Below, piece after piece: positions 2,515 to 12,009 of a stretch of 12,873 bases of DNA (its first letter is position 1; every line of letters starts with the position of its first letter). Source of the DNA: Minisyncoccota bacterium. Its GTDB lineage: Bacteria; Patescibacteriota; Minisyncoccia; UBA6257; 2-01-FULL-56-20. Under the pieces are notes generated by a model. That model was given only the letters and a program-made list of their open reading frames with translations. It was not told the origin of the DNA and did not search any database. The position numbers were made by a program, and so were the translations under genes. The DNA lies in assembly GCA_035541855.1 (NCBI GenBank), contig DATKMM010000022.1, forward strand, positions 1-12,873, written 5' to 3'.

Positions 2515-2562
2515 AAAAACAAGTTTTTGACATCTCAAAATCTGAATTGAAAAGGAGTGGAT

Positions 2563-3855
2563 ATGTTGACACAGGTCTTAGCGTTAATCATTGGCGTACT
2601 TGGGATGGCTCTATGCGCTCTGTTCGCCACATATTGGCTTTGGTTGCCCTGGGTTATCTCGGTGTTCGCGGCGCACAATTTCCTAATCACATCGGTTGAG
2701 GAAAACACGGGAAAATGGATAAAGAAGGGCGCGGGAAAACGGGGACGCGCATGGCGTTTTATCACGCCAAGCAGAGAAACCGACCCAGCACCCGATCCGG
2801 ATCCGGATAAAAGCTGGAACATCGAGCAGACCCGGCAACCAATACATGGCCATCTCCTGAATGCGGAAGGAGAAGAATCTTGGTTCGTGGACTGGATCGA
2901 CCGTAAACTGCCCGGCAGCATACGTTGGATAGGGTTGCCGTTCATTTATTCCATCCATGAATACAACTTCCGTTGGGAGGTTCAAAGGGAAGGTAAGCCT
3001 GGTACGACCCAAAACGGCAAAATCAAGACGGAAGACGGCTTGATTGAAATGGAAAAACTGAGTAACGACAAGTGGGTGGCAACGTTTGCAAAGCGGCTTG
3101 ACTATATCTACTTGCGGGACGCAGTTTACTATTTCGAAGTGATCGGCGCTGAAACAAAAGCCATCGTCAAGGGCGCAGGCATCGATCAAACGGCTCGTGT
3201 GGGCATGCCGCTCGAGGTTTATATGCTGGCGACCATTCGCGTCGTCAATCCTTATCGCGCACTGTTCCTCGTCCATGATTGGCTGGAATCGACTTTTGAC
3301 CTATTACGGCCGAACGTCAGGTCGTGGATCGCTGCGAACTCCTACGAAGATGTCGTCGGCAAACCCGAAGTCGCCGAGCGGGAATATGACCAGTTCCTGA
3401 AGCAAAGCAATGTTCCCGATGGGCTCATACCACCGGGAACGCCGCCGGATAAAATGCCGAAGGCAATTGGTGCGTACATTGAGTGCACCTATGGTGTACG
3501 GGAAAAACGAATCGCATTTGACGATGTCATCCCGCCGGAAGAATACACCCAAGCAACCGTGAGGCGGATGGAGGCTGAGCAGAACAGAAATGCCACCATC
3601 ACCAACGCCGAAGCGGAACGCGAGAAGCAGACTATCATAGCGCAAGGCGAAGCCAATCGGATTGCTACCGTCACTGCGGCAATCGCCGCAGGTGGCGACC
3701 TCGCTATGGAGTTACGGCGGCTCGAAGCACTTGAGTCTGTCGGGAATAATGGCAATATGGTCGTGGTGAGCGACAAAGGCGCTCAAATGCTCATTAATAC
3801 GAATACGGCCAAACAACCCAGGCTTATTGAGCCGGGAAAGGAGAAGAAAGAATGA
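2563..3855 (+). CDS. SPFH/band-7 (stomatin/flotillin/HflKC-like) membrane protein with a long N-terminal extension
   Basis: A Shine-Dalgarno AAAGGAG (2551-2557) sits 5 nt before ATG 2563. The ORF track's start at 2557 is an in-frame GTG two codons upstream. The N-terminal TM segment is LTQVLALIIGVLGMALCALFATYWLWLPWVISVF. The SPFH core reads LEVYMLATIRVVNPYRALFLVHDW…LRPNVRSWIAANSYEDVVG … YGVREKRIAFDDVIPPEEYTQATVRRMEAEQNRNATITNAEAEREKQTIIAQGEANRIATVTAA, with the characteristic Ala/Glu-rich coiled region. About 200 aa between the TM segment and the core, including DPAPDPDPD, are not typical of the family. Confidence 0.8.
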   Translation: MLTQVLALIIGVLGMALCALFATYWLWLPWVISVFAAHNFLITSVEENTGKWIKKGAGKRGRAWRFITPSRETDPAPDPDPDKSWNIEQTRQPIHGHLLNAEGEESWFVDWIDRKLPGSIRWIGLPFIYSIHEYNFRWEVQREGKPGTTQNGKIKTEDGLIEMEKLSNDKWVATFAKRLDYIYLRDAVYYFEVIGAETKAIVKGAGIDQTARVGMPLEVYMLATIRVVNPYRALFLVHDWLESTFDLLRPNVRSWIAANSYEDVVGKPEVAEREYDQFLKQSNVPDGLIPPGTPPDKMPKAIGAYIECTYGVREKRIAFDDVIPPEEYTQATVRRMEAEQNRNATITNAEAEREKQTIIAQGEANRIATVTAAIAAGGDLAMELRRLEALESVGNNGNMVVVSDKGAQMLINTNTAKQPRLIEPGKEKKE

Positions 3856-4649
3856 AGCTCGCGATACCTCCCTTCGCCAAGGGACATCTAGTCCGTCACG
3901 TATTTGCGATCATTTTTTGGCCAGTTTTGATGCTGGCTCTCGCAACCTGGACCATGAAAACGTTTCTTGGCCAGCATGGCCACGGAACTATTCTGGCTGG
4001 TGGCATCATCGCTCTCGTGCTAATATTCCTCGTCGTCGTTGCGTGGATCATCATTAGCATGATTGGGAAAGCATGGAACCAGAACACTTCAATGGCTGAG
4101 GCGGACGACGAGACCGAAGAGAAAACCGCCGACAAAGCGCAACCACACGGGTCAAAGCTGAAGAAGATGATTTGGGCTATGGTGGTAATAGCCATAATTT
4201 CGACTTTTACCATCAAAACGCTTCAGCTCAAACGGGGCGATGCGATATTGCCTCAACCGGGAGCGCTCTGTTCCGGTAGGGATGGCGATGCAATTGATTT
4301 CGATTATTCTGCCTTCGCAAAACGGAGGTTAGTAATCGACGTCCCGTCCACGACCGAAGGGACGGGATGCTTCTCCATGTTCGATCTTCCAAAGGCATGG
4401 GGTATGCGCGCGCGCTTCCGGCGCCTCGGCGACGATCCCGACACTTACCTGTACTTTATGGTCCCGGGCGGTGCAATACAGGGGCCATTTGGCAAGGGCG
4501 ACGTCGTGAACCTGCCCGCCGTGCCAACGCTCTGGATACAAGCAACCAAGAAGGGCACCCGCATTGAATTCTGGTCGGATGCGTTACTGCGGACACCGGC
4601 CAGTACCACGACCCCTCCTCCGGAGCCGGCCACCCCTGCTAGACAGTAA
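3852..4649 (+). CDS. 3-TM membrane protein translationally coupled to the SPFH gene; possible NfeD-like partner (unverified)
   Basis: GAAAGGAG lies 7 nt upstream of ATG 3852, which overlaps the SPFH stop as ATGA. It has three hydrophobic helices (FAIIFWPVLMLALATW; ILAGGIIALVLIFLVVVAWIIISMI; MIWAMVVIAIISTFTI). A roughly 130-aa C-terminal soluble domain, possibly beta-rich, ends in a Pro/Thr-rich tail. SPFH genes commonly pair with NfeD-type membrane proteins, but no NfeD motif was recognised directly. Confidence 0.7.
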   Translation: MKLAIPPFAKGHLVRHVFAIIFWPVLMLALATWTMKTFLGQHGHGTILAGGIIALVLIFLVVVAWIIISMIGKAWNQNTSMAEADDETEEKTADKAQPHGSKLKKMIWAMVVIAIISTFTIKTLQLKRGDAILPQPGALCSGRDGDAIDFDYSAFAKRRLVIDVPSTTEGTGCFSMFDLPKAWGMRARFRRLGDDPDTYLYFMVPGGAIQGPFGKGDVVNLPAVPTLWIQATKKGTRIEFWSDALLRTPASTTTPPPEPATPARQ

Positions 4650-4670
4650 TTCGGCGATTAGTTCTTTGCT

Positions 4671-4709
4671 CCCCCACGGCGCCTTGACCGGCCTCGTGGG
4701 GGATTTTTT
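4671..4709 (+). terminator. Rho-independent terminator of the SPFH operon
   Basis: CCCCCACGgcGCC-ttgacc-GGCcTCGTGGGGG forms an 8-bp perfect GC stem with further pairing across a bulge, followed by TTTTTT (4704-4709). It lies 22 nt after the stop at 4647-4649. Confidence 0.75.
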
Positions 4710-4713
4710 GTAC

Positions 4714-4740
4714 AAAAAGACCCCGCGAAGGGGCCTTTTT
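4714..4740. terminator. Small bidirectional terminator-like hairpin serving the convergent minus-strand operon
   Basis: AAAAA-GA-CCCC-GCGAA-GGGG-CC-TTTTT has a 4-bp GC stem and a 5-nt loop flanked by an A5 and a T5 run. It lies 26 nt beyond the minus-strand pilin gene's stop at 4766. Confidence 0.5.
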
Positions 4741-4765
4741 GAGATAGCTTCGTGAAACCTGAAAG

Positions 4766-5161
4766 TTAACAAGTCCCGATACTGCCCGAAGCGCCGAGGA
4801 AGCTCGCCACGATCAACGGGATCGCGCGGGCCAAGAGCGCCACGCCGACCGCGATAGCCGCATAGAGCAGCGTGCTGCCGGCACCCTTCACCTTCTCCGG
4901 ATCGCCTGCGGCGGTCAAATATTTGAACGCGGCGACGATAATGAAGATGACGGCGAGCGCGACCAGGAAATAGAACAGCCAGCTGAAGACGACGCAGACC
5001 GTATTGAGGACGCCCTGAATGCTCGTGATCTGGCCCTGCGGAACCGTGCTCTGTACTGGAGGAGCCGGCTGGGGGATGTTCTGCGCCGATGCCAAGACCG
5101 GCAACGCCAGGGACAAGATCGGAAGCCCGAACTCCTTCGCGAAATTGATTGCTTTTTTCAT
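4766..5161 (-). CDS. TrbC/VirB2-like pilin paralog 1 (secreted two-helix membrane protein, 131 aa from ATG 5161)
   Basis: The signal peptide MKKAINFAKEFGLPILSLALPVLASA is followed by a Q/P-rich variable segment. The conserved core is VCVVFSWLFYFLVALAVIFIIVAAFKYLTAAGDPEKVKGAGSTLLYAAIAVGVALLARAIPLIVASFLGASGSIGTC, two TM helices around a short loop with a C-terminal Cys. It resembles VirB2 in the …NNICTFI… and …ASFLGKTLTGGG elements. The track start at 5167 is a GTG two codons upstream of the ATG. Confidence 0.8.
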   Translation of the reverse strand: MKKAINFAKEFGLPILSLALPVLASAQNIPQPAPPVQSTVPQGQITSIQGVLNTVCVVFSWLFYFLVALAVIFIIVAAFKYLTAAGDPEKVKGAGSTLLYAAIAVGVALLARAIPLIVASFLGASGSIGTC

Positions 5162-5217
5162 AAACACGTAGGATTTTCGACCTTTCAGGATGCCGTTTCA
5201 GTATACCATTTCCAACG

Positions 5218-5676
5218 CTAACACGCCAGGAAGCCCCCTCCCCCGAAGCCGCCTCCGGACGAAGAACCCGCGCCGAGGAAACTCGCGACAATGCTCGGAA
5301 TGGCTTTCGCAAGGAGTGCCACCGCTACCGCGATAGCCGCATACATCAGCGTGTTGTTGGCGCTCTTCACCTTTTCGGCCTCGCCCGAGCTCGTCAGATA
5401 CTTGTAAGCGCCGACCACGACGAAGACGACCGCCAAGACGATAAGACCGTAGAACATCCAGCTGAAGACGGTGCAGCCGAAGTTGAGCACGCTTTGGGTC
5501 GAAACGAAACCAGAAGCATACGGCACGTTCGTGCCGGTCGGCAGCTGCGGCTGGGCGCCAACCGTCCCGCCGCTCCCCGTGCCGCCCGTTGGAGCAAATG
5601 CTCCAGCCGAAAGAGGTATCGCCAAAGACAAAATCGAAATGCCGAATTCTTTTATAAACCGTTTTATCTTTTCCAT
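5218..5676 (-). CDS. TrbC/VirB2-like pilin paralog 2 (152 aa from ATG 5676)
   Basis: MEKIKRFIKEFGISILSLAIPLSAGAFA aligns with the paralog 1 signal peptide. A G/T/S/P-rich variable segment follows. The core is GCTVFSWMFYGLIVLAVVFVVVGAYKYLTSSGEAEKVKSANNTLMYAAIAVAVALLAKAIPSIVASFLGAGSSSGGGFGGGGFLAC. The 22-nt block ccgtagaacatccagctgaaga is shared with paralog 3. The track start at 5706 would add 10 non-homologous residues. Confidence 0.8.
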   Translation of the reverse strand: MEKIKRFIKEFGISILSLAIPLSAGAFAPTGGTGSGGTVGAQPQLPTGTNVPYASGFVSTQSVLNFGCTVFSWMFYGLIVLAVVFVVVGAYKYLTSSGEAEKVKSANNTLMYAAIAVAVALLAKAIPSIVASFLGAGSSSGGGFGGGGFLAC

Positions 5677-5699
5677 AAGAATTTTAGTATTCCGACCTT

Positions 5700-6041
5700 T
5701 TAACATGCCAGGAAGCTTCCGCTCGTCGCCTTCGCGCCAAGGAGGCTTGCCACGATCGCCGGAATTCCCTTCGCGAGAAGCGCCACCGCGATAGCAATGG
5801 CGGCATATAGGATCATCTTGTTCGCCTTACTGACTTTTTCCGCCTCGCCGTTCGCCGTCGCATAATTATATGCGGCGACCACGATCATGATGAGCGACAG
5901 GACGATGAGCCCGTAGAACATCCAGCTGAAGATCGTGCACATGAACTGCAATAATTCCTGGGTAGTGGTGATGGGCGGTTTAAAGCTCAGAGAGGAACCG
6001 CTGCTAGTAGCCTGTGCAAATGCCTTGGAGACGAATGTCAT
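5700..6041 (-). CDS. TrbC/VirB2-like pilin paralog 3, lacking a canonical signal-peptide N-region (113 aa from ATG 6041)
   Basis: MTFVSKAFAQATSSG… is followed by the core MCTIFSWMFYGLIVLSLIMIVVAAYNYATANGEAEKVSKANKMILYAAIAIAVALLAKGIPAIVASLLGAKATSGSFLAC. The ATG sits 1 nt after paralog 4's TAATAA double stop. The 28-codon upstream extension in the track overlaps paralog 4 out of frame and is not hydrophobic. Confidence 0.6.
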   Translation of the reverse strand: MTFVSKAFAQATSSGSSLSFKPPITTTQELLQFMCTIFSWMFYGLIVLSLIMIVVAAYNYATANGEAEKVSKANKMILYAAIAIAVALLAKGIPAIVASLLGAKATSGSFLAC

Positions 6042-6045
6042 TTTA

Positions 6046-6450
6046 TTATTTACCGCCGAATAGATTTTTAATGATGGACACGATGCCGCTCGCCAAGACC
6101 ACCACGGCAAAACCGATGGCCGCATACATCAATGTCTTTCGACCATTTGCGAACTTCTCGGGACTGCCGCCTGCCGTGATCATCTGGAATCCGCCGATGA
6201 GCGCCATAACGGCAACCAGCGGTATGGCGATCATGACCAAAAAATTGGAGATCGCCGCCACAACAGCCTGAAAGTTATTGATAGAACCGAGAGGATTGGG
6301 GAGGGAAACGGAGGTCTGGCTTCCAGTTCCACTCGCATTACCGCCGCCAATCGTACCCTGCTGCGCAGATGCGTACCGCACCAAACCAATTCCGAACAAC
6401 CAAGCGGCCACCCCGACCCTTCGCAATAGCTTTTCCGGCATTGGATTCAT
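6046..6450 (-). CDS. TrbC/VirB2-like pilin paralog 4 (divergent, no C-terminal Cys)
   Basis: The signal peptide is M(NPM)PEKLLRRVGVAAWLFGIGLVRYASA, then a G/S/T-rich segment. The core is FQAVVAAISNFLVMIAIPLVAVMALIGGFQMITAGGSPEKFANGRKTLMYAAIGFAVVVLASGIVSIIKNLFGGK. Candidate starts are ATG 6450 or 6441, or GTG 6471, which overlaps the preceding gene's stop as GTGA. Confidence 0.7.
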   Translation of the reverse strand: MNPMPEKLLRRVGVAAWLFGIGLVRYASAQQGTIGGGNASGTGSQTSVSLPNPLGSINNFQAVVAAISNFLVMIAIPLVAVMALIGGFQMITAGGSPEKFANGRKTLMYAAIGFAVVVLASGIVSIIKNLFGGK

Positions 6451-6467
6451 TATAGCAGATTCCCGCT

Positions 6468-6983
6468 TCACTGGGGCTGGAAGGCGCCGGCGGCACAGAA
6501 GCTCAACCCGAGGTTCACGCCGGCGTAGTCCGGATCAACATCTATCGTCGTCCCGACCTTGACGTTCAACTTGCACGCATCGGCCTGCGAAATACCAAGC
6601 GCCTGAAGGAACGCCTGTTCCGCCTCGGCGCGGACGGTCTCGAACGGCGCGGCTTCGATGAGAATATTGAAACTGCTGTCGGGCGCATAATAAGTAATGT
6701 TGTAAGTGCTGGTCTGCTCGATAAGGATGGCCGTATGGTCGGCGCTTACCTGCCGGGTGGTGTTATAGAAATTGTTCATGACGACGCCTCCCTCCGGCGT
6801 CCCGATGGTCAGCGTCGCCCCGGTTGGCGGCGTGAATGGCGCCGTACCGGTCGCAACCGGCGGCAAGGTTCCCGTCGTTCCGCCGCCGCCCGCGGGCGAC
6901 GACCCGCCGCGAAGAACGAAGAACAGCGCCCCAGCGGCGATGGCGATGACTACAACGGTTCCGATGATGATTGTTTTTCTCAT
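6468..6983 (-). CDS. Membrane-anchored extracytoplasmic protein of unknown function (171 aa)
   Basis: An N-terminal TM anchor TIIIGTVVVIAIAAGALFFVL is followed by a G/T/P-rich linker (SSPAGGGGTTGTLPPVATGTAPFTPPTGATLTIGT) and a roughly 110-aa globular region with two Cys. It lies 6 nt after the fusion gene, overlaps paralog 4's GTG, and shows good high-GC codon bias. No family was recognised. Confidence 0.65.
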   Translation of the reverse strand: MRKTIIIGTVVVIAIAAGALFFVLRGGSSPAGGGGTTGTLPPVATGTAPFTPPTGATLTIGTPEGGVVMNNFYNTTRQVSADHTAILIEQTSTYNITYYAPDSSFNILIEAAPFETVRAEAEQAFLQALGISQADACKLNVKVGTTIDVDPDYAGVNLGLSFCAAGAFQPQ

Positions 6984-6989
6984 GTTTGT

Positions 6990-7802
6990 TTATGACCCGC
7001 AGGCCTTCCGGGTGGCCGGCCCCCACAAGCTCCAGTTGGTGCCGCTCTTGGAGAGCAAACACGCTTCCGTGATATTGGTCGTCGGGTTCTTCGCGGCGGC
7101 CAGGCATTGCTGGTAGAGCGACTGGTTCGTCACGGTGCAGTGGGGATTACTGCCGGTATAACGATTGCTGAACGCGCTCGGGCAGTTGAGCGTCTGGCCG
7201 GTGGTCGGGTCCGATATGGTGTTCGCGGAAAGGTTGATCTGGAAGAGCCCTATGGACGCGTAATTGCCGTCGTCGCATTTGTCCCCTTGCGCGTTCGGGT
7301 TGCCGCTGCTCTCCACGTTGCAGACCCCGCCGGCCTTCTGGGCATTATTGCTCCCCATGCAGCTACCCTGCAATTGCGCCGTACTGCACGGGCCACTGGA
7401 AGGCGCCTGGCATCTCCCGCCGGTACCGCTGCCCCCTCCCGTCGTACTGCTCCCGTTCCCTCCACCGATCCCATTGACCGCGCCCTGCGGCAGGGCGGAA
7501 AGCAACGGCAGCGAGCAGCTGGTCAGGCCAGGATTGATGGTATAGAGGATCAGGTAGGCGCCGGCGAGCAGGAGAATGCCGATAAGCGCGCTCCAGATCC
7601 AGCTTCTCCCTTCGCTTTGGCGGCTGGCATTTCCGGCCGACGTGGCGTACTTGAGCCCCCCATATACTATAGCGCCGAACGCCAGAATGCCCGCAGCCAG
7701 CAGGGCGAAATAATAGAAATTCACGATCCATCCACAGGGGCCCGCGGAAAGCGGGATGCCGCCGGGGAGGTTGGTGCCGATGGTGATCGCTGCCTGGTTC
7801 AT
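6990..7802 (-). CDS. Fusion protein: N-terminal TrbC/VirB2-like two-helix module plus C-terminal Cys-rich lysozyme-like/lytic-transglycosylase (VirB1/GH23-GH22-like) domain
   Basis: Residues about 20-90 (PCGWIVNFYYFALLAAGILAFGAIVYGGLKYATSAGNASRQSEGRSWIWSALIGILLLAGAYLILY) align with the pilin core, including the Cys before TM1 and the KY[LA]T[SA][AS]G loop. The C-terminal ~180 aa contain CNVESSGNPNAQGDKCDDGNYASIGLFQINLS. This resembles the catalytic Glu-Ser and GLMQ(I)N motifs of SLT/VirB1 and the ES…DGSTDYGILQIN of C-type lysozyme. There are about 13 Cys in all. Confidence 0.75.
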   Translation of the reverse strand: MNQAAITIGTNLPGGIPLSAGPCGWIVNFYYFALLAAGILAFGAIVYGGLKYATSAGNASRQSEGRSWIWSALIGILLLAGAYLILYTINPGLTSCSLPLLSALPQGAVNGIGGGNGSSTTGGGSGTGGRCQAPSSGPCSTAQLQGSCMGSNNAQKAGGVCNVESSGNPNAQGDKCDDGNYASIGLFQINLSANTISDPTTGQTLNCPSAFSNRYTGSNPHCTVTNQSLYQQCLAAAKNPTTNITEACLLSKSGTNWSLWGPATRKACGS

Positions 7803-7806
7803 GTCA

Positions 7807-8271
7807 TTACAGGGTGCATGCGGCTGTTCCGAAACCGCCGATCAATCCCGTGAGATGGAAGAATTGGACGACAGTCGAAACCAGGACCCAAGCGCAAAGC
7901 ACGATGACCACGCCCCAGACCGCTCCCGTGATCGTCTTCTTGCCCCGCCCGACCATTTCGGGACTGGCGCCGGCGAGGATGATCATGATGCCGCCGACCA
8001 GGATCAGGATCGGGGCGATGATCCACAGGATGAACGCGATCACGAAATAGATGACGTTCGCCATCTCCGCGACGAAGTCGCACAGATTACTGCATGCGGG
8101 AAGCGAGGCCGTCCCCGAACTGCCGGTCCCGGTGCAGACGACGAGCGGCCCGTTCAGGATGGTCGGGTCGAACACGTTGCTCTTGACGGGCGCATGGCCG
8201 GCGGCGGCAACGTATGGCAGCGCCAGCAGGGCGATGGCGAAAATCAACTTGATGGCCAGCGGATGTTTCAT
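7807..8271 (-). CDS. TrbC/VirB2-like pilin paralog 5 (divergent)
   Basis: The signal peptide is MKHPLAIKLIFAIALLALPYVAAAG. A variable Cys- and Gly-rich segment follows. The core is CDFVAEMANVIYFVIAFILWIIAPILILVGGIMIILAGASPEMVGRGKKTITGAVWGVVIVLCAWVLVSTVVQFF, with a Gly-rich tail GLIGGFGTAACTL. Its loop AGASPEMVGRGKK is homologous to the loop in paralogs 1-4. Confidence 0.75.
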   Translation of the reverse strand: MKHPLAIKLIFAIALLALPYVAAAGHAPVKSNVFDPTILNGPLVVCTGTGSSGTASLPACSNLCDFVAEMANVIYFVIAFILWIIAPILILVGGIMIILAGASPEMVGRGKKTITGAVWGVVIVLCAWVLVSTVVQFFHLTGLIGGFGTAACTL

Positions 8272-8280
8272 GGCGTTGCC

Positions 8281-9585
8281 TTACTGTCCCCTCATCACGG
8301 TGGTTATGGCGTTCTGCGCGACGCCAAGCGCGTTCGCGGCATTCGACGAGCCGTTCAATACGTTCTCAATGGCCGCATCCATGATCGAATCGATCTGGGC
8401 GTCGTCCGCCTCGTACCACGCCCGCGCCGTGAGCGCCTGGGCCGCGAACGTCCCATAGGTCGGGTCGGTGAGAGCCGCGGCGATGAGACTTCGTCCGGCA
8501 GGCGGCTGGGCCATATCCTTAAGATATACCTCTTCGGCCGCCGGGGTAGTGGTCATATAAATGATAAATTGCCACGCGGCATCAACTTGGCCCCGTTTGG
8601 AAACCGCCAGGCCCTGATAACTTGGATAGTTCACGGCGATCGTGGCGCTGGCCGGCTGCAGCATGGGCGCCACGCCGTAGTCCAAAAACGGCGCCTTCTC
8701 TTTGATCTCCGACATCGCCGATGCATAATCGAACACGATCGCCGTCTTGCCGGCCAGGAAATTTTGCATGGAATCCCCCATCGCGTCGTTCCAGGTATAG
8801 TTCGGCGAGGCCGAATTCGCGAACTGAAGGTAGAAATTAAAAGCCGCCAAACCCGGATTGCTGCCGTCCGGGGCGACGGAAGCGAACGTGGCGGCTGTCC
8901 CATCGTTGCTCACCATATTCGTCCCGTTCTGCAGCATGAGCAGGAAAAGGATGTCCGGCGCATCCGCGATGCTGGCTCCCGAACCGCCGAGCGCGACCGC
9001 CGCCTGCGTGATCTGTCCTTGGGCGTTCAGCGTCCGGAGTTTCGGGATATCGGAATCCAGGTCGTTCCATGTTTTCGGCGGATATACGATGCCGGCCGAA
9101 TCGAACAGGTCTTTGTTGTAATACATCGCGAGCGTGTCGAGCGAAAGCGGCAGGGCATAAACCTGGCCGCCAGCGACGAAATTCTGGGTCACCACCGTCG
9201 GGAAGTCGCCCGCGACCGTTGCCGCCGTGAACGCGGGAGTAAGCGTCGCCGGCGCCGGCGCCATCACCGAATACCATTTCGGCAGGTCGTGGTCGCCAAC
9301 CTCGAAAATGTCCGGGCCGGTACCCGCCGCGAACGCCTTCAGGAGGTCGCCTGCGTACGTCGCCGGATCGTCCTGCAGATAATCGACCGTCACGTTCGGC
9401 GCGACCGCCTTGTACGCCGATGCCATATCGGAAAAGACGGACTTCGGGTCGGTGCCCCAAACCGTCAGCGTGATCTTCTGCGTATTTCCCGTCGGGCGCA
9501 GGCCGAAATAAACGGCGGCAACGACAGCCAAAACCAGCACGACCCCTGCCGCCACGATGACAATTTGTTTTTGGGTGAATTTCAT
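8281..9585 (-). CDS. ABC-transporter-type extracellular solute-binding protein, family 1 (sugar/MalE-like), TM-anchored; no cognate permease or ATPase in the window
   Basis: An N-terminal signal anchor IVIVAAGVVLVLAVVAAVYFGL is followed by ITLTVWG, AAGTGPDIFEVGDHDLPKW (compare MalE ATGDGPDIIFWAHDRFGGY), LPLSLDTLAMYYNKDLF…PPKTWNDL and FDYASAMSEIKEKAPFLDYGVAPM. The ATG at 9583-9585 directly abuts the gyrA stop codon at 9586-9588. Confidence 0.85.
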   Translation of the reverse strand: MKFTQKQIVIVAAGVVLVLAVVAAVYFGLRPTGNTQKITLTVWGTDPKSVFSDMASAYKAVAPNVTVDYLQDDPATYAGDLLKAFAAGTGPDIFEVGDHDLPKWYSVMAPAPATLTPAFTAATVAGDFPTVVTQNFVAGGQVYALPLSLDTLAMYYNKDLFDSAGIVYPPKTWNDLDSDIPKLRTLNAQGQITQAAVALGGSGASIADAPDILFLLMLQNGTNMVSNDGTAATFASVAPDGSNPGLAAFNFYLQFANSASPNYTWNDAMGDSMQNFLAGKTAIVFDYASAMSEIKEKAPFLDYGVAPMLQPASATIAVNYPSYQGLAVSKRGQVDAAWQFIIYMTTTPAAEEVYLKDMAQPPAGRSLIAAALTDPTYGTFAAQALTARAWYEADDAQIDSIMDAAIENVLNGSSNAANALGVAQNAITTVMRGQ

Positions 9586-12009
9586 TTACACCACGATCGT
9601 TCCCGCCAGCCGGTCGCCGCTCTTCAGGTCCATGATCCGCACTCCTTGCGCCGCGCGACCCGTCGTCCGCACCGTTCCAAGTTCCATCCTGATCATCTGT
9701 CCTTTCGCGGAAAGCGCGAATACCTCCTTCTCTCCCGTGATCACGTGCGCGGAAACCACCGGCCCGGTCTTTGGCGTGATCTCGGCGGTCTTGATCCCCG
9801 ACCCGCCGCGACCCTGTGTTTTGTATTCCGCCAGCGAGGTCTGCTTGGCGAACCCGTGCTCCATGACCACGAACAGCTTCGCATCCTCTCCTTTGATAAT
9901 TATATCAAACCCGGCGACCTCATCGTTCTGCTTCTTCAGTTTGATCCCGCGCACCCCTGCCGCCGTCCGCCCCATCGGGCGCACCTGCTTCTCGTCGAAC
10001 CGGATGGATTGGCCCTGGCGCGTCGCGAGCACCGCCTGGTCGGTGCCGCCCGTGAGCTCCGCCCACTTCAACTGGTCGCCCTTTTTGAGCTTGATGGCGA
10101 TGATGCCCGTCCGGCGGATGTTCTCGAAGTCGGCGAGCGGGGTCTTCTTGATGTTCCCCTGCTTCGTCACCATCATCAGGTATTTCTTTTTCTCCCCTTT
10201 GGCCGAATAGTTCACGATCGCGGTCACCCGCTCATCGGCCGGCAATTCGAGGAAGTTCTGGATCGCTTTGCCCTTGGATATGCGCGTCGCCTGCGGAATT
10301 TCGTGGACCTTCGTCTGGAACACGCGGCCGCGGTCCGTGAAGAAGAGCACGTTGTCGTGCGTCCGCGCGCTGAAGAAGTGCGACAGGAAATCGTCTTCCG
10401 CCACGTCGGAACCGATCAGCCCCTTGCCTCCCCGCTTCTGCGCCTTGAACGTGTCCGGCGGCAGGCGTTTGATGTAGCCGCCGGCCGAGACCGTGACGAT
10501 CGCGTCCTCGTCGGTGATCAGGTCCTCGTCGCTCACCGCCTCTACCGCGCGCGCCACGACCTGCGTCCGGCGCTCGTCGCCGTATTTCTCCTTGAGCTCC
10601 TTCACTTCGTCCTTGATGATCTTCAATATCTTCGCCGGGCTCTTCAGGATGAGCGACAGTTCCTCGATGAGCGCCCGCTTCTCCTTCAGCTCGTCGTCTA
10701 TCTTCTTATGCTCCAGCGCGGCGAGCGTTTGCAGCCGCATCTCGAGGATCGCGGTCGCCTGGACGTCGCTCAGTTTGAAAAGCTTCACCAGGTTCGCATG
10801 CGCCTCCTCTTTGTCCTTCGATCTCTTGATGGTCGCGATCACGCGGTCGATCGCATCCAGCGCCTTCGCCAACCCTTCCAATATATGGGCGCGCTCCTCT
10901 GCTTTTTTGAGGTCGAACTGCGTCCGCCGCCGCACGATCTCCTTCCGGTGCGCGATATATTCGGTAATGAAGTCGCGGATCGGCAGCAGGCGCGGCTCGA
11001 TGCCGTTCACGAGCGCGATCATGTTCAGGTTGAAATTCTTCTCGAGGTCGGTGTGCTTATAGAGGAAGTTCAAAACCTTCTGCGGCGGCACGTCGTTCTT
11101 GAGCTCGATCACGATGCGCATCCCCTCCCGGTCGGATTCGTCCCGCAGGTCCCGGATGCCCTCCACCTTCTTTTCAGTGTGCAGCTCGGCAATGGTTTTG
11201 ATGAGCTCCGATTTGTTCACCTGGTACGGGATCTCGGTCACCACGATATCGAACTGTTTGCCTGCCTTGTTCTCCACGATCTCCGCCTTGGCCCGCGCGA
11301 GGATGGCGCCCCGTCCCGATATGTAGGCTTCGCGGATCGCCTTCGCGTCGTAGATAATGCCGCCCGTCGGGAAATCCGGACCCTTGATGAACTGCAGAAC
11401 ATCCTCGTTCGTGGCGTCCGGATTGTCGGCGATATGCAGGATCGCGTCCGCGACCTCGTTCAGGTTGTGCGGCGGGATGCTCGTCGCCATGCCGACCGCG
11501 ATACCAAGCGATCCGTTCAAAAGCAGGTTCGGCAATTTCGCCGGCAGGACCCGCGGCTCCTCGCGCGTCGCGTCGTAGTTCGGGGTCCAATCAACCGTGT
11601 CCTTCTCGATGTCCCCCATCATCTCGCTCGCGATAGCGGAAAGCTTCGCCTCGGTATACCGCATCGCGGCCGGAGGGTCGCCGTCAACGCTCCCGAAGTT
11701 CCCCTGTCCTTTCACCAACGGATAACGCAGTGAAAAATCCTGCGCCAGGCGCACCAAGGTGTCGTAGATCGCCGAATCGCCGTGCGGATGATACCGCCCC
11801 ATCGTGTCGCCGACCACCGTGGACGACTTCCTCGTCTTCGCGTTCGAGGTCAGGCCGCTCTCCCACATAGCCCACAGCACGCGGCGGTGCACCGGCTTCA
11901 GGCCGTCGCGCACGTCGGGAAGCGCGCGCGCGACAATGACCGACATTGCGTAATCAAGGTATGACTCGCCAAGTTCCTTTGTGATCTCTCTTTTTTCCGA
12001 GTTTGCCAT
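9586..12009 (-). CDS. gyrA: DNA gyrase subunit A
   Basis: [28 protein letters not shown] and the [21 protein letters not shown] are present. The active-site Tyr is in [10 protein letters not shown]. The GyrA-box QKRGGKG precedes the beta-pinwheel repeats. At 807 aa the protein is full length. Confidence 0.97.

Follow-up and report, generated by a model that had tools for sequence, protein, structure and literature searches.

The analysed stretch of DNA (12,873 nucleotides; hereafter, the window) carries five small pilin-like ORFs, all of which were found on the minus strand at the coordinates given by the first-pass annotation. Read along this strand, the a-type gene P7 (7807–8271; 154 aa) is followed by F (6990–7802; 270 aa), a pilin-hydrolase fusion gene situated between P7 and the four tandem pilin genes, and by u (6468–6983; 171 aa), which is unrelated to pilins and lies between F and P4. 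The tandem genes are P4 (b-type, 134 aa; 6046–6450), P3 (c-type, 113 aa; 5700–6041), P2 (d'-type, 152 aa; 5218–5676), an extra copy that only some relatives have, and P1 (d-type, 131 aa; 4766–5161), the last gene of the array. The starts of P1, P2, P3 and P7 are likely the true ones, and P4 likely starts at ATG 6450, with its ORF reaching GTG 6471. The earlier count of five paralogs, four of them in tandem, holds for the separate ORFs, but a sixth pilin domain exists in F. The five ORFs are mutually alignable, as had been claimed, with identities of 57% for P1–P2, 45–46% for P1–P3 and 22–30% for P1 versus P4 or P7, and the cores of P1, P2 and P3 form a 223-nt direct repeat (61–71% DNA identity; spacing, 464–479 nt). 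An identical 113-aa gene to P3 is called in an independent Logan assembly. The source contig comes from a metagenome-assembled genome of Candidatus Paceibacterota, ultra-small bacteria of the candidate phyla radiation (CPR).

PF18895 (T4SS_pilin, 'Type IV secretion system pilin') was the top Pfam match of all five ORFs. Four of them passed the gathering cut-off of 26.6 bits (P1, 37.7; P2, 31.1; P4, 43.0; P7, 29.8), and P3, with 22.8 bits (E-value, 9e-5), is a sub-threshold match just under it. A comparison with PF04956 (TrbC/VirB2), suggested earlier, gave a weak match for P4 (E-value, 0.009), the closest of the set to the generic family model, but no array ORF matched PF04956 above threshold in the Pfam scan. 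The best NCBIfam match of all five was NF045849, the Mycoplasma ICE 'pilin-like conjugal transfer protein' (E-values, 3e-8 to 7e-3; 16–33 bits, all under the 40-bit equivalog cut-off), with P1 covering positions 7–79 of the 80-position model (E-value, 3e-8). The family search returned no match of the array ORFs to holins or other phage families, which, together with PF18895 being the top hit in every case, speaks against an unrelated family. Homologs of the family are numerous: at E ≤ 1e-3, 46,995 cluster representatives match.

A profile of the array pilins and their relatives from three related loci was further compared with one built from eight VirB2/TrbC proteins annotated on MPF_T plasmids. 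In hhalign, the alignment was co-linear over 94 columns (probability, 62%; score, 32.8) and spanned the AxA/Q site, the pre-TM1 position, TM1, the loop and TM2; of 61 controls, the reversed profile reached 10.8, no column shuffle exceeded 13.1 and no block shuffle exceeded 22.0. A profile dominated by P1 orthologs gave no alignment to VirB2. AlphaFold2 predicted a helical hairpin for P1 (residues 45–83 and 88–121; mean pLDDT, 71). Foldseek comparison of this hairpin with the PDB gave a best E-value of > 1 and was uninformative, because a bare helical hairpin offers a fold search nothing to discriminate, and a sequence-profile search of PDB chains found no pilin. Taken as sequence evidence, the PF18895 matches and the alignment to VirB2/TrbC support the proposed TrbC/VirB2-like identity, and the view that the five ORFs represent real, homologous, secreted two-helix pilins of the T4SS kind.

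In each of the five proteins, two strongly hydrophobic segments flank a short loop whose last residues are PEK or PEM. A signal peptide ending in AxA had been ascribed to all of them; it is present in P1 (ASA, with the cleavage site ...ASA/Q), P2 (AGA), P4 (ASA) and P7 (AAA), but P3 retains only '...AFA' without the hydrophobic core, its signal peptide being truncated compared with orthologs such as L004_c, where it is complete. P3 and F are the two module members here that lack a canonical signal peptide. The conserved Cys and Cys-ended tail likewise apply to three proteins, P1 (Cys56 before TM1 and terminal Cys131), P2 (Cys68 and terminal Cys152, with a long Gly-rich tail) and P3 (Cys35 and terminal Cys113), but not to P4, which has neither a Cys nor a Gly-rich Cys tail, nor to P7, which contains five Cys (three in its longer N-region, one in TM2 and one near the C-terminus). 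In a set of 174 unique small pilins, 71 contain the full Cys pair, 57 contain neither Cys, 33 only the C-terminal and 13 only the pre-TM1 one; the 33 are mostly a-type proteins, in which the N-side Cys cluster lies further upstream than the test covers. Exactly two Cys are found in 26 of 36 single-unit representatives (none in five, one in a single protein). This pairing of a pre-TM1 with a C-terminal Cys suggests a disulfide that would close the hairpin.

The array is part of a module conserved in the core genome, with the gene order gyrA, SBP, pilin a, F (pilin plus cell-wall hydrolase), u, and pilins b, c, (d') and d. The module is shared by about 30 related species; in the survey of gene orders, the exact order gyrA-SBP-a-F-u-b-c-d was seen in 15 species and variants in about 25 more. 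Its surroundings are the housekeeping genes gyrA, rpsO, pnp and recA. The product of F consists of a pilin-like two-TM hairpin followed by a Cys-rich lysozyme-like (SLT_3) domain, the signal peptide of its orthologs being missing. It scores 22.7 bits against PF18895 (under the cut-off of 26.6) and 32.8 bits against PF18896 (SLT_3), or 35.3 bits when the C-terminal domain is taken alone. In orthologs occupying the F slot, this domain is weakly CHAP-like in two relatives and replaced by unassigned Cys-rich domains elsewhere. By its domain composition, F is a candidate VirB1-like cell-wall hydrolase. The protein encoded by u, a conserved module member, is anchored by an N-terminal TM segment, which a G/T/P-rich linker joins to an alpha/beta domain of ~110 aa; this domain contains two conserved Cys. 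The SBP_bac_1 solute-binding protein gene (8281–9585, minus strand; PF01547 E-value, 2e-26) is an orphan ABC-type gene that in ~35 loci is invariably flanked by gyrA and the array, abutting both, and its status as a module member is uncertain. The rest of the window contains genes for a response regulator, a histidine kinase, RadC, SPFH, a 265-aa membrane protein, SBP_bac_1, gyrA and a metallo-beta-lactamase-fold protein; SPFH, the 265-aa protein and SBP_bac_1 were scanned against Pfam/NCBIfam, and the others were named from their translations and precomputed Pfam matches of their counterparts in related loci.

As noted earlier, no VirB4, VirD4 or VirB6 is seen within the 12.9 kb of the window, and none was detected within 10 kb on either side of the array in ~45 related loci (precomputed Pfam matches for three loci, Pfam scans of large ORFs in the others). 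Genes for the machinery that assembles the pilins presumably lie in another part of the genome. According to the literature, VirB4 occurs in 2,417 of 3,035 Patescibacteria assemblies. Quinonero-Coronel et al. (2025) report VirB2-like pilins in 1,948 assemblies that have VirB4, 1,135 of which carry them near virB4, and 441 arrays of 2–11 such genes each. In Wang et al. (2023), the pilin series of Southlakia epibionticum is described as essential, as are the lysozyme and peptidase genes beside virB4 inside its T4SS cluster (Wang et al. 2023; Quinonero-Coronel et al. 2025). Because such arrays were published for Patescibacteria in 2023–2025, the present array is another example of a published phenomenon and not a discovery. 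The new details are the gyrA-linked module, the separate orthogroups, the expression signals of P1 and the Cys pairs; no mention of orthogroup structure, a leader motif or Cys pairing was found in the available sections of either paper.

We consider it likely that this region supplies the pilin set for a chromosomal, conjugation-derived T4SS typical of Patescibacteria. The arrays described in the literature (Wang et al. 2023, Cell; Quinonero-Coronel et al. 2025, Microb Genom) belong to the same protein family, PF18895, whose cut-off four of the five genes here exceed. They are chromosomal, occur in the same phylum, encode a signal peptide and a two-TM hairpin, are arranged in tandem with an occasional non-pilin gene interrupting, and have lysozyme/peptidase partner genes; paralog identity is low in both (22–57% here; mean 25%, maximum 54% there). 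Unlike them, the present array is not near virB4 but fixed beside gyrA in a conserved module, its hydrolase and a pilin-like domain form one polypeptide, and it is found in Paceibacteria, whereas published arrays are most abundant in Microgenomatia and Saccharimonadia.

Drawing on sequence features and on established VirB2/TraA biology, assembly may be pictured as follows. The small proteins would be made with a Sec signal peptide, which signal peptidase I would remove by cleavage behind AxA, so that the mature protein mostly begins with Gln. The mature pilin would then be a membrane-embedded hairpin of two helices with both ends outside and a short Lys/Arg-containing loop in the cytoplasm. 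A VirB4-type ATPase and a VirB6-type platform, encoded elsewhere, may extract hairpins from this pool and polymerise them into a pilus or a short conduit through the wall, while F may play a VirB1-like role by cutting peptidoglycan, of the cell's own or the host's wall, at the assembly site. The Cys pair probably forms a disulfide that holds the open end of the hairpin together or joins subunits to one another, and might be comparable in function to the head-to-tail cyclisation of VirB2/TrbC. T-pilins of diderms are reportedly cyclised head to tail via a peptide bond, and the Cys pair of the array pilins suggests a disulfide instead.

In other respects, the TrbC/VirB2 T-pilins (PF04956; Agrobacterium VirB2, RP4 TrbC) share with the array pilins the AxA/Q cleavage, a short exposed N-segment, two TM helices, a small loop, a Gly-rich C-terminal end and a co-linear profile. 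A lytic transglycosylase gene is near the pilins in both, VirB1 being encoded directly upstream of virB2 in VirB systems. The differences are the below-threshold PF04956 matches, the location of virB2 inside the virB operon beside virB3 and virB4, and a diderm instead of a monoderm host. The NF045849 (Mbov_0395) family also comes from a monoderm source, and the Mycoplasma ICE system is, according to the literature, a conjugation system of the MPF_FATA type, a class that the CPR VirB4 is related to; its genes are single-copy on mobile elements, whereas those of the array are multi-copy and core-chromosomal.

It is possible, though unlikely, that the same family builds no extended pilus and that the hairpins stay in or just above the membrane as a ring, a channel lining or a short pseudopilus of a T4SS conduit spanning the wall and S-layer. 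Single polypeptides of relatives contain 7, 11 or 16 hairpins without internal cleavage sites, and one such fused-hairpin ORF, in the same locus type, translates correctly in two independent assemblies; extraction of single subunits is hard to reconcile with these ORFs of 7–16 fused hairpins. Fused c-ring subunits of ATPases offer a parallel for such multi-hairpin polypeptides. No experimental sighting of a PF18895 filament in any CPR bacterium was found in the literature searched. Gram-positive-type T4SSs, the source of the CPR system, are generally without pili according to Wang et al. (2023) and Quinonero-Coronel et al. (2025). Against this, a processed signal peptide and exposed tails at both termini are features that membrane-extracted pilins typically have, and the literature treats the proteins as pilins, a review citing a potential of theirs for building conjugative pili. 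The present data fit both a short conduit and a long filament.

Independence of the gyrA-linked module from any T4SS, with small secreted membrane proteins and a wall hydrolase serving envelope maintenance or division and Sec/YidC sufficing for assembly, is highly improbable. The housekeeping setting, the failure to detect an adjacent VirB4, VirB6 or VirD4 gene in ~45 loci, the lack of an ATPase in the module, and the envelope nature of the SBP and hydrolase partners would agree with it. The proteins are, however, homologous to VirB2 and to ICE pilin-like proteins, and the sources cited above describe both the strong family-level linkage to virB4 elsewhere in Patescibacteria and the essential pilins, lysozyme and peptidase inside the T4SS cluster of S. 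epibionticum.

The evolutionary relations of the paralogs were examined next to those of their orthologs. Paralogs inside the genome share 30–57% identity, compared with 65–88% for P1 orthologs, essentially over the full length (best 120 of 405 homologs at E ≤ 1e-3). P4 orthologs share 41–58% identity, those of P7 occupy the first array position in related loci, P3 aligns with L004_c and L002_c, and the counterpart of P2 is L004_d. Each paralog type forms a separate conserved orthogroup, with orthologs in fixed gene order across dozens of species. On this evidence, the five genes are four old orthogroups (a, b, c and d) plus one extra d-like copy, and not interchangeable variants. The paralogous cores of P1 and P2 (dN 0.25, dS 0.97) appear to be under purifying selection. 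In their N-regions, dN is 1.31 versus a dS of 1.34, which is saturated, so that dN/dS is unreliable at such divergence. The N-region had been described as hypervariable, which is not the case among P1 orthologs: it is moderately variable (59% identity, versus 75–91% in the core), with P41, Q42, I45, S47 and Q49 each at least 90% conserved. Of the two evolutionary readings offered earlier, the orthogroups therefore favour distinct major and minor pilins, and diversifying selection is unsupported. That the paralogs form a cassette of alternative versions of one pilin, diversified for antigenic or host-range variation, can hardly be credited: the N-region identity of 18–27% between paralogs, the N-region dN close to dS, the one to three c/d-type copies, a relative with four copies of 79–82% identity, and the adaptation to different hosts suggested by Quinonero-Coronel et al. 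(2025) are outweighed by old orthogroups in fixed order, conserved N-region residues, and the finding of no long identical tracts as a sign of gene conversion and of no inversion or recombination sites, the dN/dS values themselves being unreliable. The VirB2 paralog arrays of Bartonella/Anaplasma, cited in the same paper, resemble the present one in that T4SS pilin genes of a host-dependent bacterium have been amplified in tandem and have diverged, but they are recent, lineage-specific and thought to be antigenic variants, whereas the paralogs here are old and ordered.

P1 is flanked by putative expression signals on the minus strand. An intrinsic-terminator-like hairpin (4713..4741) lies downstream of P1, between convergent genes, and has a 12-bp stem, a 5' A-run and a 3' U-run (RNA fold, −19.3 kcal/mol; z = −2.4); it was absent from the output of a consensus terminator scan. 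The 5' region of P1 contains the leader motif GAAAGGTCGAA (5176..5186), whose 10-mer core does not vary across 29 related loci, where it precedes the last pilin gene by 6–41 nt; where present, the 11-mer is, with one exception, the sole copy in ~20 kb. The region has no Rfam match and no consensus structure. Upstream lies an extended -10-like box, TGGTATACT (5200..5208), unique in the window; when 29 leader regions are aligned, the TGnTAnnnT positions hardly vary, which suggests a promoter element. Because P1 is the most conserved paralog and combines a promoter-like box, a leader motif and a terminator hairpin, it is a candidate major pilin; the a, b and c types might serve as minor or initiating subunits. 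A variant of the leader motif, AAAGGTCGGA (5691–5700, minus strand), is associated with P2.

In the window, nine genes on the minus strand form a head-to-tail run with intergenic gaps of 0–56 nt. The run comprises gyrA (9586–12009), the gene of an orphan solute-binding protein of the SBP_bac_1 family (SBP; 8281–9585), the small pilin-like ORF P7 (7807–8271), a gene for a pilin–SLT_3 fusion (F; 6990–7802), a gene for an anchored protein of 171 aa (u; 6468–6983), and four further small pilin-like ORFs, P4 (6046–6450), P3 (5700–6041), P2 (5218–5676) and P1 (4766–5161). The P1 sequence is identical to HVO28549.1 (NCBI; locus tag VMT81_01020) from a Candidatus Paceibacterota metagenome-assembled genome, in which the window (12,873 bp) is the longest contig. 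A search for a longer contig of the source organism returned nothing beyond this one (12.9 kb) and a Logan contig of 4 kb. The solute-binding protein is of the ABC type, and its gene, which has no neighboring permease or ATPase genes, abuts both of its neighbors (gaps of 0 and 9 nt); in almost all of the related loci, too, such a gene separates gyrA from the pilin array.

Bioinformatics analysis confirmed that the five small ORFs recognized in the first-pass annotation encode related proteins that can be aligned to each other throughout. P2 is 57% identical to P1, P3 is 45–46% identical to it, and P4 and P7 share 22–30% identity with it, while the cores of P1, P2 and P3 constitute a direct DNA repeat of 223 nt (61–71% identity). 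Each of the five has two strong hydrophobic segments flanking a short loop that ends in PEK or PEM. Hydropathy and inspection of AxA sites supported a signal peptide, two TM helices and a short loop in P1, P2, P4 and P7. The cleavable AxA signal peptide ascribed to all five proteins is present in four; that of P3 is truncated and most of it is lost. Also, the array described as consisting of five pilins contains a sixth pilin-like domain, located in the fusion gene F.

PF18895 (T4SS_pilin) was the top Pfam match of all five ORFs. Its gathering cut-off (26.6 bits) was exceeded by P4 (43.0 bits), P1 (37.7 bits), P2 (31.1 bits) and P7 (29.8 bits), and P3 (22.8 bits) and F (22.7 bits) scored slightly under it, with E-values of about 1 × 10−4. 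No match to holin or other phage proteins was found in a PHROG search. The interpretation of the ORFs as pilin genes holds. The TrbC/VirB2 family named in the first-pass annotation (PF04956; cut-off, 27.9 bits) gave no score above the cut-off, the sole match being that of P4 (16.6 bits; E-value, 0.009). The best NCBIfam match of all five proteins was NF045849, a pilin-like conjugal transfer protein of Mycoplasma integrative conjugative elements (ICE), with a top score of 33.3 bits (P1; E-value, 2.9 × 10−8) against an equivalog cut-off of 40 bits. Judged by these scores, the five proteins are related to NF045849 and are not members of it. The family to which they belong is large, with 46,995 representatives of 50%-identity clusters (E-values ≤ 1 × 10−3).

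For a more distant comparison, a profile of 15 CPR pilins from the window and three related loci (A3; mixed paralogs) was aligned with a profile of eight annotated VirB2/TrbC proteins (A5), each encoded on an MPF_T plasmid by a gene that has virB1 and virB3 as its neighbors. The two profiles showed a collinear match of 94 columns (probability, 62%; score, 32.8; E-value, 7 × 10−5), and the alignment spanned the signal peptide, the AxA|Q site, the position preceding TM1, TM1, the loop and TM2. In the controls, the score fell far lower, to 10.8 with the profile reversed, and it did not exceed 13.1 in 30 column shuffles or 22.0 in 30 block shuffles. A profile dominated by P1 orthologs (A2) gave no match. 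The AlphaFold2 model of P1 consists of a signal helix, a disordered stretch (residues 28–44) and a long helical hairpin, with a mean pLDDT of 71. A Foldseek search of the PDB with this model returned nothing below an E-value of 1, only generic helical hairpins, and the structure search added nothing because a bare helical hairpin is too simple a fold. Comparison of the pilin profile with all PDB chains produced a designed repeat protein and GPCR noise, and no pilin; nor was an experimental structure of a PF18895 filament found among the PDB chains or in the literature consulted. The Ig-like donor-strand pilins of the "Pam pilus" described in a 2026 preprint are unrelated to the pilins of the window.

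The arrangement of the array was compared with that of orthologous loci, collected from long metagenome contigs and from GTDB species-representative genomes (48 loci), the ORFs of which were classified by profile and BLAST searches. The order gyrA-SBP-a-F-u-b-c-d, where a to d denote the pilin types, was found to be exact in 15 species, and about a dozen further species deviate from it only in extra c or d copies or at contig ends. A short form, gyrA-SBP-a-b-(c/d), occurs in about a dozen species. The window carries the full order, in which P7 is of type a, P4 of type b, P3 of type c, P2 of type d' and P1 of type d. The module is surrounded by housekeeping genes (rpsO, pnp, recA, secG). Copy number at the c/d end is dynamic, with one relative harboring four copies that are 79–82% identical.

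For the variable N-terminal region, either diversifying selection or a repertoire of major and minor pilins had been proposed in the first-pass annotation. This region indeed diverges between paralogs, but it is conserved among orthologs. The orthologs of P1 are 65–88% identical (best 120 of 405), which is far above the identity of paralogs within a genome, and so the paralogs represent old specialized classes rather than a variation cassette. The dN/dS comparison between paralogs, which had been put forward as a check, was informative for the core, which is under purifying selection (about 0.26 for P1 and P2). Paralog dS is near saturation (0.97–1.3 in the core, and from 1.3 to infinite in the N-region), hence only the core ratio is meaningful and the N-region estimates are not.

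The conserved Cys attributed to each of the five proteins is missing from P4, which has no Cys at all. Among 174 unique small pilins from related loci, 71 possess both a Cys preceding TM1 and a C-terminal Cys, and 57 have neither. The C-terminal Cys alone was scored by the same test in 33 of the 174, mostly a-type proteins with the N-side Cys cluster further upstream, and the pre-TM1 Cys alone in 13. Most c and d types contain exactly two Cys and most b types none; among single-unit representatives of the family, exactly two Cys are present in 26 out of 36 and one Cys in 1 out of 36. Both of these Cys map to the open end of the hairpin predicted by AlphaFold2, and, together with the paired counts, this makes a disulfide within or between subunits plausible. 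The sequence begins with Gln after the AxA site and ends with Cys. Such a disulfide would mimic the head-to-tail cyclization of T-pilins.

The C-terminal domain of F (6990–7802, minus strand) matches PF18896 (SLT_3; cut-off, 27 bits) with 32.8 bits in the full-length protein and 35.3 bits as a separate domain, while the classic SLT family (PF01464) is matched with E-values of 0.02–0.07 only. Comparison of the window with the corresponding slots of loci L002, L004, L012, L017, L018, L027, L029, L035, L040 and L046 revealed that the C-terminal domain varies between species: SLT_3-like, CHAP-like (a weak match under the cut-off; E-value, 8 × 10−4), and no fewer than three Cys-rich types that contain His/Asp motifs and gave no Pfam match. 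LAS-type metallopeptidase motifs read in other domains of this slot were unsupported by Pfam. A domain that is swapped in a fixed slot behind a pilin-like anchor fits a putative VirB1-like, wall-cutting role. The slot echoes the essential lysozyme and peptidase genes located beside virB4 in Southlakia epibionticum. As for protein u, a small alpha/beta domain was predicted with confidence, and it has no counterpart in the PDB. Unlike their orthologs, both P3 (5700–6041, minus strand) and F lack an N-terminal signal peptide, and each starts 4 nt past the preceding stop codon. The short form of P3 was confirmed in an independent Logan assembly (L001).

P1 closes the run, and a stable hairpin with a U-run is located downstream of it. 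The array has a single intergenic gap of appreciable size, which lies upstream of P1 and contains an extended −10-like box, TGGTATACT, and an invariant motif, (G)AAAGGTCGAA (5176–5186, minus strand); a one-base variant of the motif (5691–5700, minus strand) precedes P2. The motif is also found in related loci L002 (9964–9974), L004 (9976–9986) and L006 (9968–9978), and in 20+ others. Its 10-mer core is invariant across 29 related loci, in which it precedes the final pilin gene by 6–41 nt. Wherever the 11-mer is present, no second copy exists in about 20 kb, except in one locus. An extended −10-like box is situated 14–25 nt upstream of the motif. No Rfam match and no conserved structure were found for this leader motif. 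(G)AAAGGTCGAA may mark strong or regulated expression of P1, which is a candidate major pilin. One candidate for a protein binding the motif is the OmpR-type response regulator encoded nearby (248–955).

No VirB4, VirD4 or VirB6 was detected in the window, nor in any of the related loci over the 10 kb to either side of the array, and no clustering of virB4, virB3 or virB6 with the pilin genes was seen over the same range. Pfam analysis of 20 ORFs that are large or adjacent in the related loci yielded RecG, FtsH, IF-2, RNase J, EF-G, EF-Tu, DUF2079, a serine recombinase and others, and no VirB4, VirD4 or VirB6. According to the data reported by Quinonero-Coronel et al. 2025, who applied PF18895 and PF04956 to 3,035 genomes, VirB4 is encoded by 2,417 (80% of Patescibacteria assemblies), and VirB2-like pilins by 1,948 VirB4-positive assemblies, in 1,135 of which they lie near virB4. 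From these figures it can be derived that pilins are found only far from virB4 in 813 of the 1,948, so in the published data the location of pilin genes away from virB4 is common. In view of the published arrays and T4SSs, the machinery for the pilins of the window is likely a VirB4/TrsD/VirB3/VirB6 system encoded at another chromosomal site, such systems often being near dnaA.

A series of predicted pilins within the essential T4SS cluster of S. epibionticum was reported by Wang et al. 2023, and a 2025 review describes the T4SSs of these bacteria as the sole Gram-positive-type systems with VirB2-like pilins. The array is an example of this published phenomenon, known in substance, and adds no new principle. 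Of somewhat greater interest than the array itself are the regularities seen at the level of the module, the leader motif and the fused poly-pilins. CPR bacteria, which account for a large part of bacterial diversity, depend on host cells, and, to our knowledge, no T4SS other than theirs has been found to be essential for growth. Their pilins are unusual for a T4SS of the Gram-positive type, and the module offers testable handles on them: the identity of the major pilin, a candidate regulatory motif, and a candidate disulfide replacing cyclization. The switching of the hydrolase domain of F among species might track the type of host cell wall. The similarity to the Mycoplasma ICE protein bears on the origin of the pilins, that is, whether they came along with the monoderm-type T4SS or were acquired from diderm systems, a question raised in Quinonero-Coronel et al. 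2025.

Some relatives possess single ORFs with 7, 11 or 16 successive pilin hairpins and a signal peptide at the start only (poly-pilins P0145, P0156 and P0209). P0145 (606 aa; 8001–9821, plus strand, of L063, a locus of the gyrA-SBP-pilin type) is correctly translated in two independent assemblies. Five further pilin genes come after it, and four of these are 79–82% identical. Among the 150 top family matches, 114 are longer than 175 aa, and most of these have at least two matched hairpin units.

It is conceivable, albeit rather unlikely when all elements of this reading are taken jointly, that the Paceibacteria module linked to gyrA constitutes a pilus kit that is distinct and self-contained. 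Such a kit would comprise four ordered pilin classes, closed by disulfides and not cyclized; a pilin-anchored wall hydrolase with a catalytic domain swapped between species (lytic transglycosylase, CHAP-like or metallopeptidase-like); the dedicated protein u, of unassigned fold; and a private expression signal of the major pilin (the GAAAGGTCGAA leader). The poly-pilins of relatives, with their 7–16 hairpins, would then be pre-assembled filament layers. If this were true, an enzyme suited to the host wall would be displayed on the filament, which would thereby help to set the host range.

Convergent with the array, an SPFH/Band-7 gene and an overlapping gene for a membrane protein of 265 aa are located at 2557–4649 (plus strand), and in many relatives, two genes of comparable size come after the array; this may be an SPFH/NfeD-like pair that simply belongs to the conserved synteny. 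An ORF of 1,325 aa (7756–11733, plus strand) is antisense to both gyrA and the SBP gene. Its composition is Arg/His/Asp-rich and low-complexity-like, as expected opposite GC-rich genes, and it is almost certainly no gene. In L004, a relative's contig of 511 kb, gyrA and a peptide chain release factor gene (recognized by its Pfam RF-1/PCRF matches) are each broken into many short ORFs (2999–5457 and 17711–18607), a pattern that resembles indel errors of long reads more than true pseudogenes.
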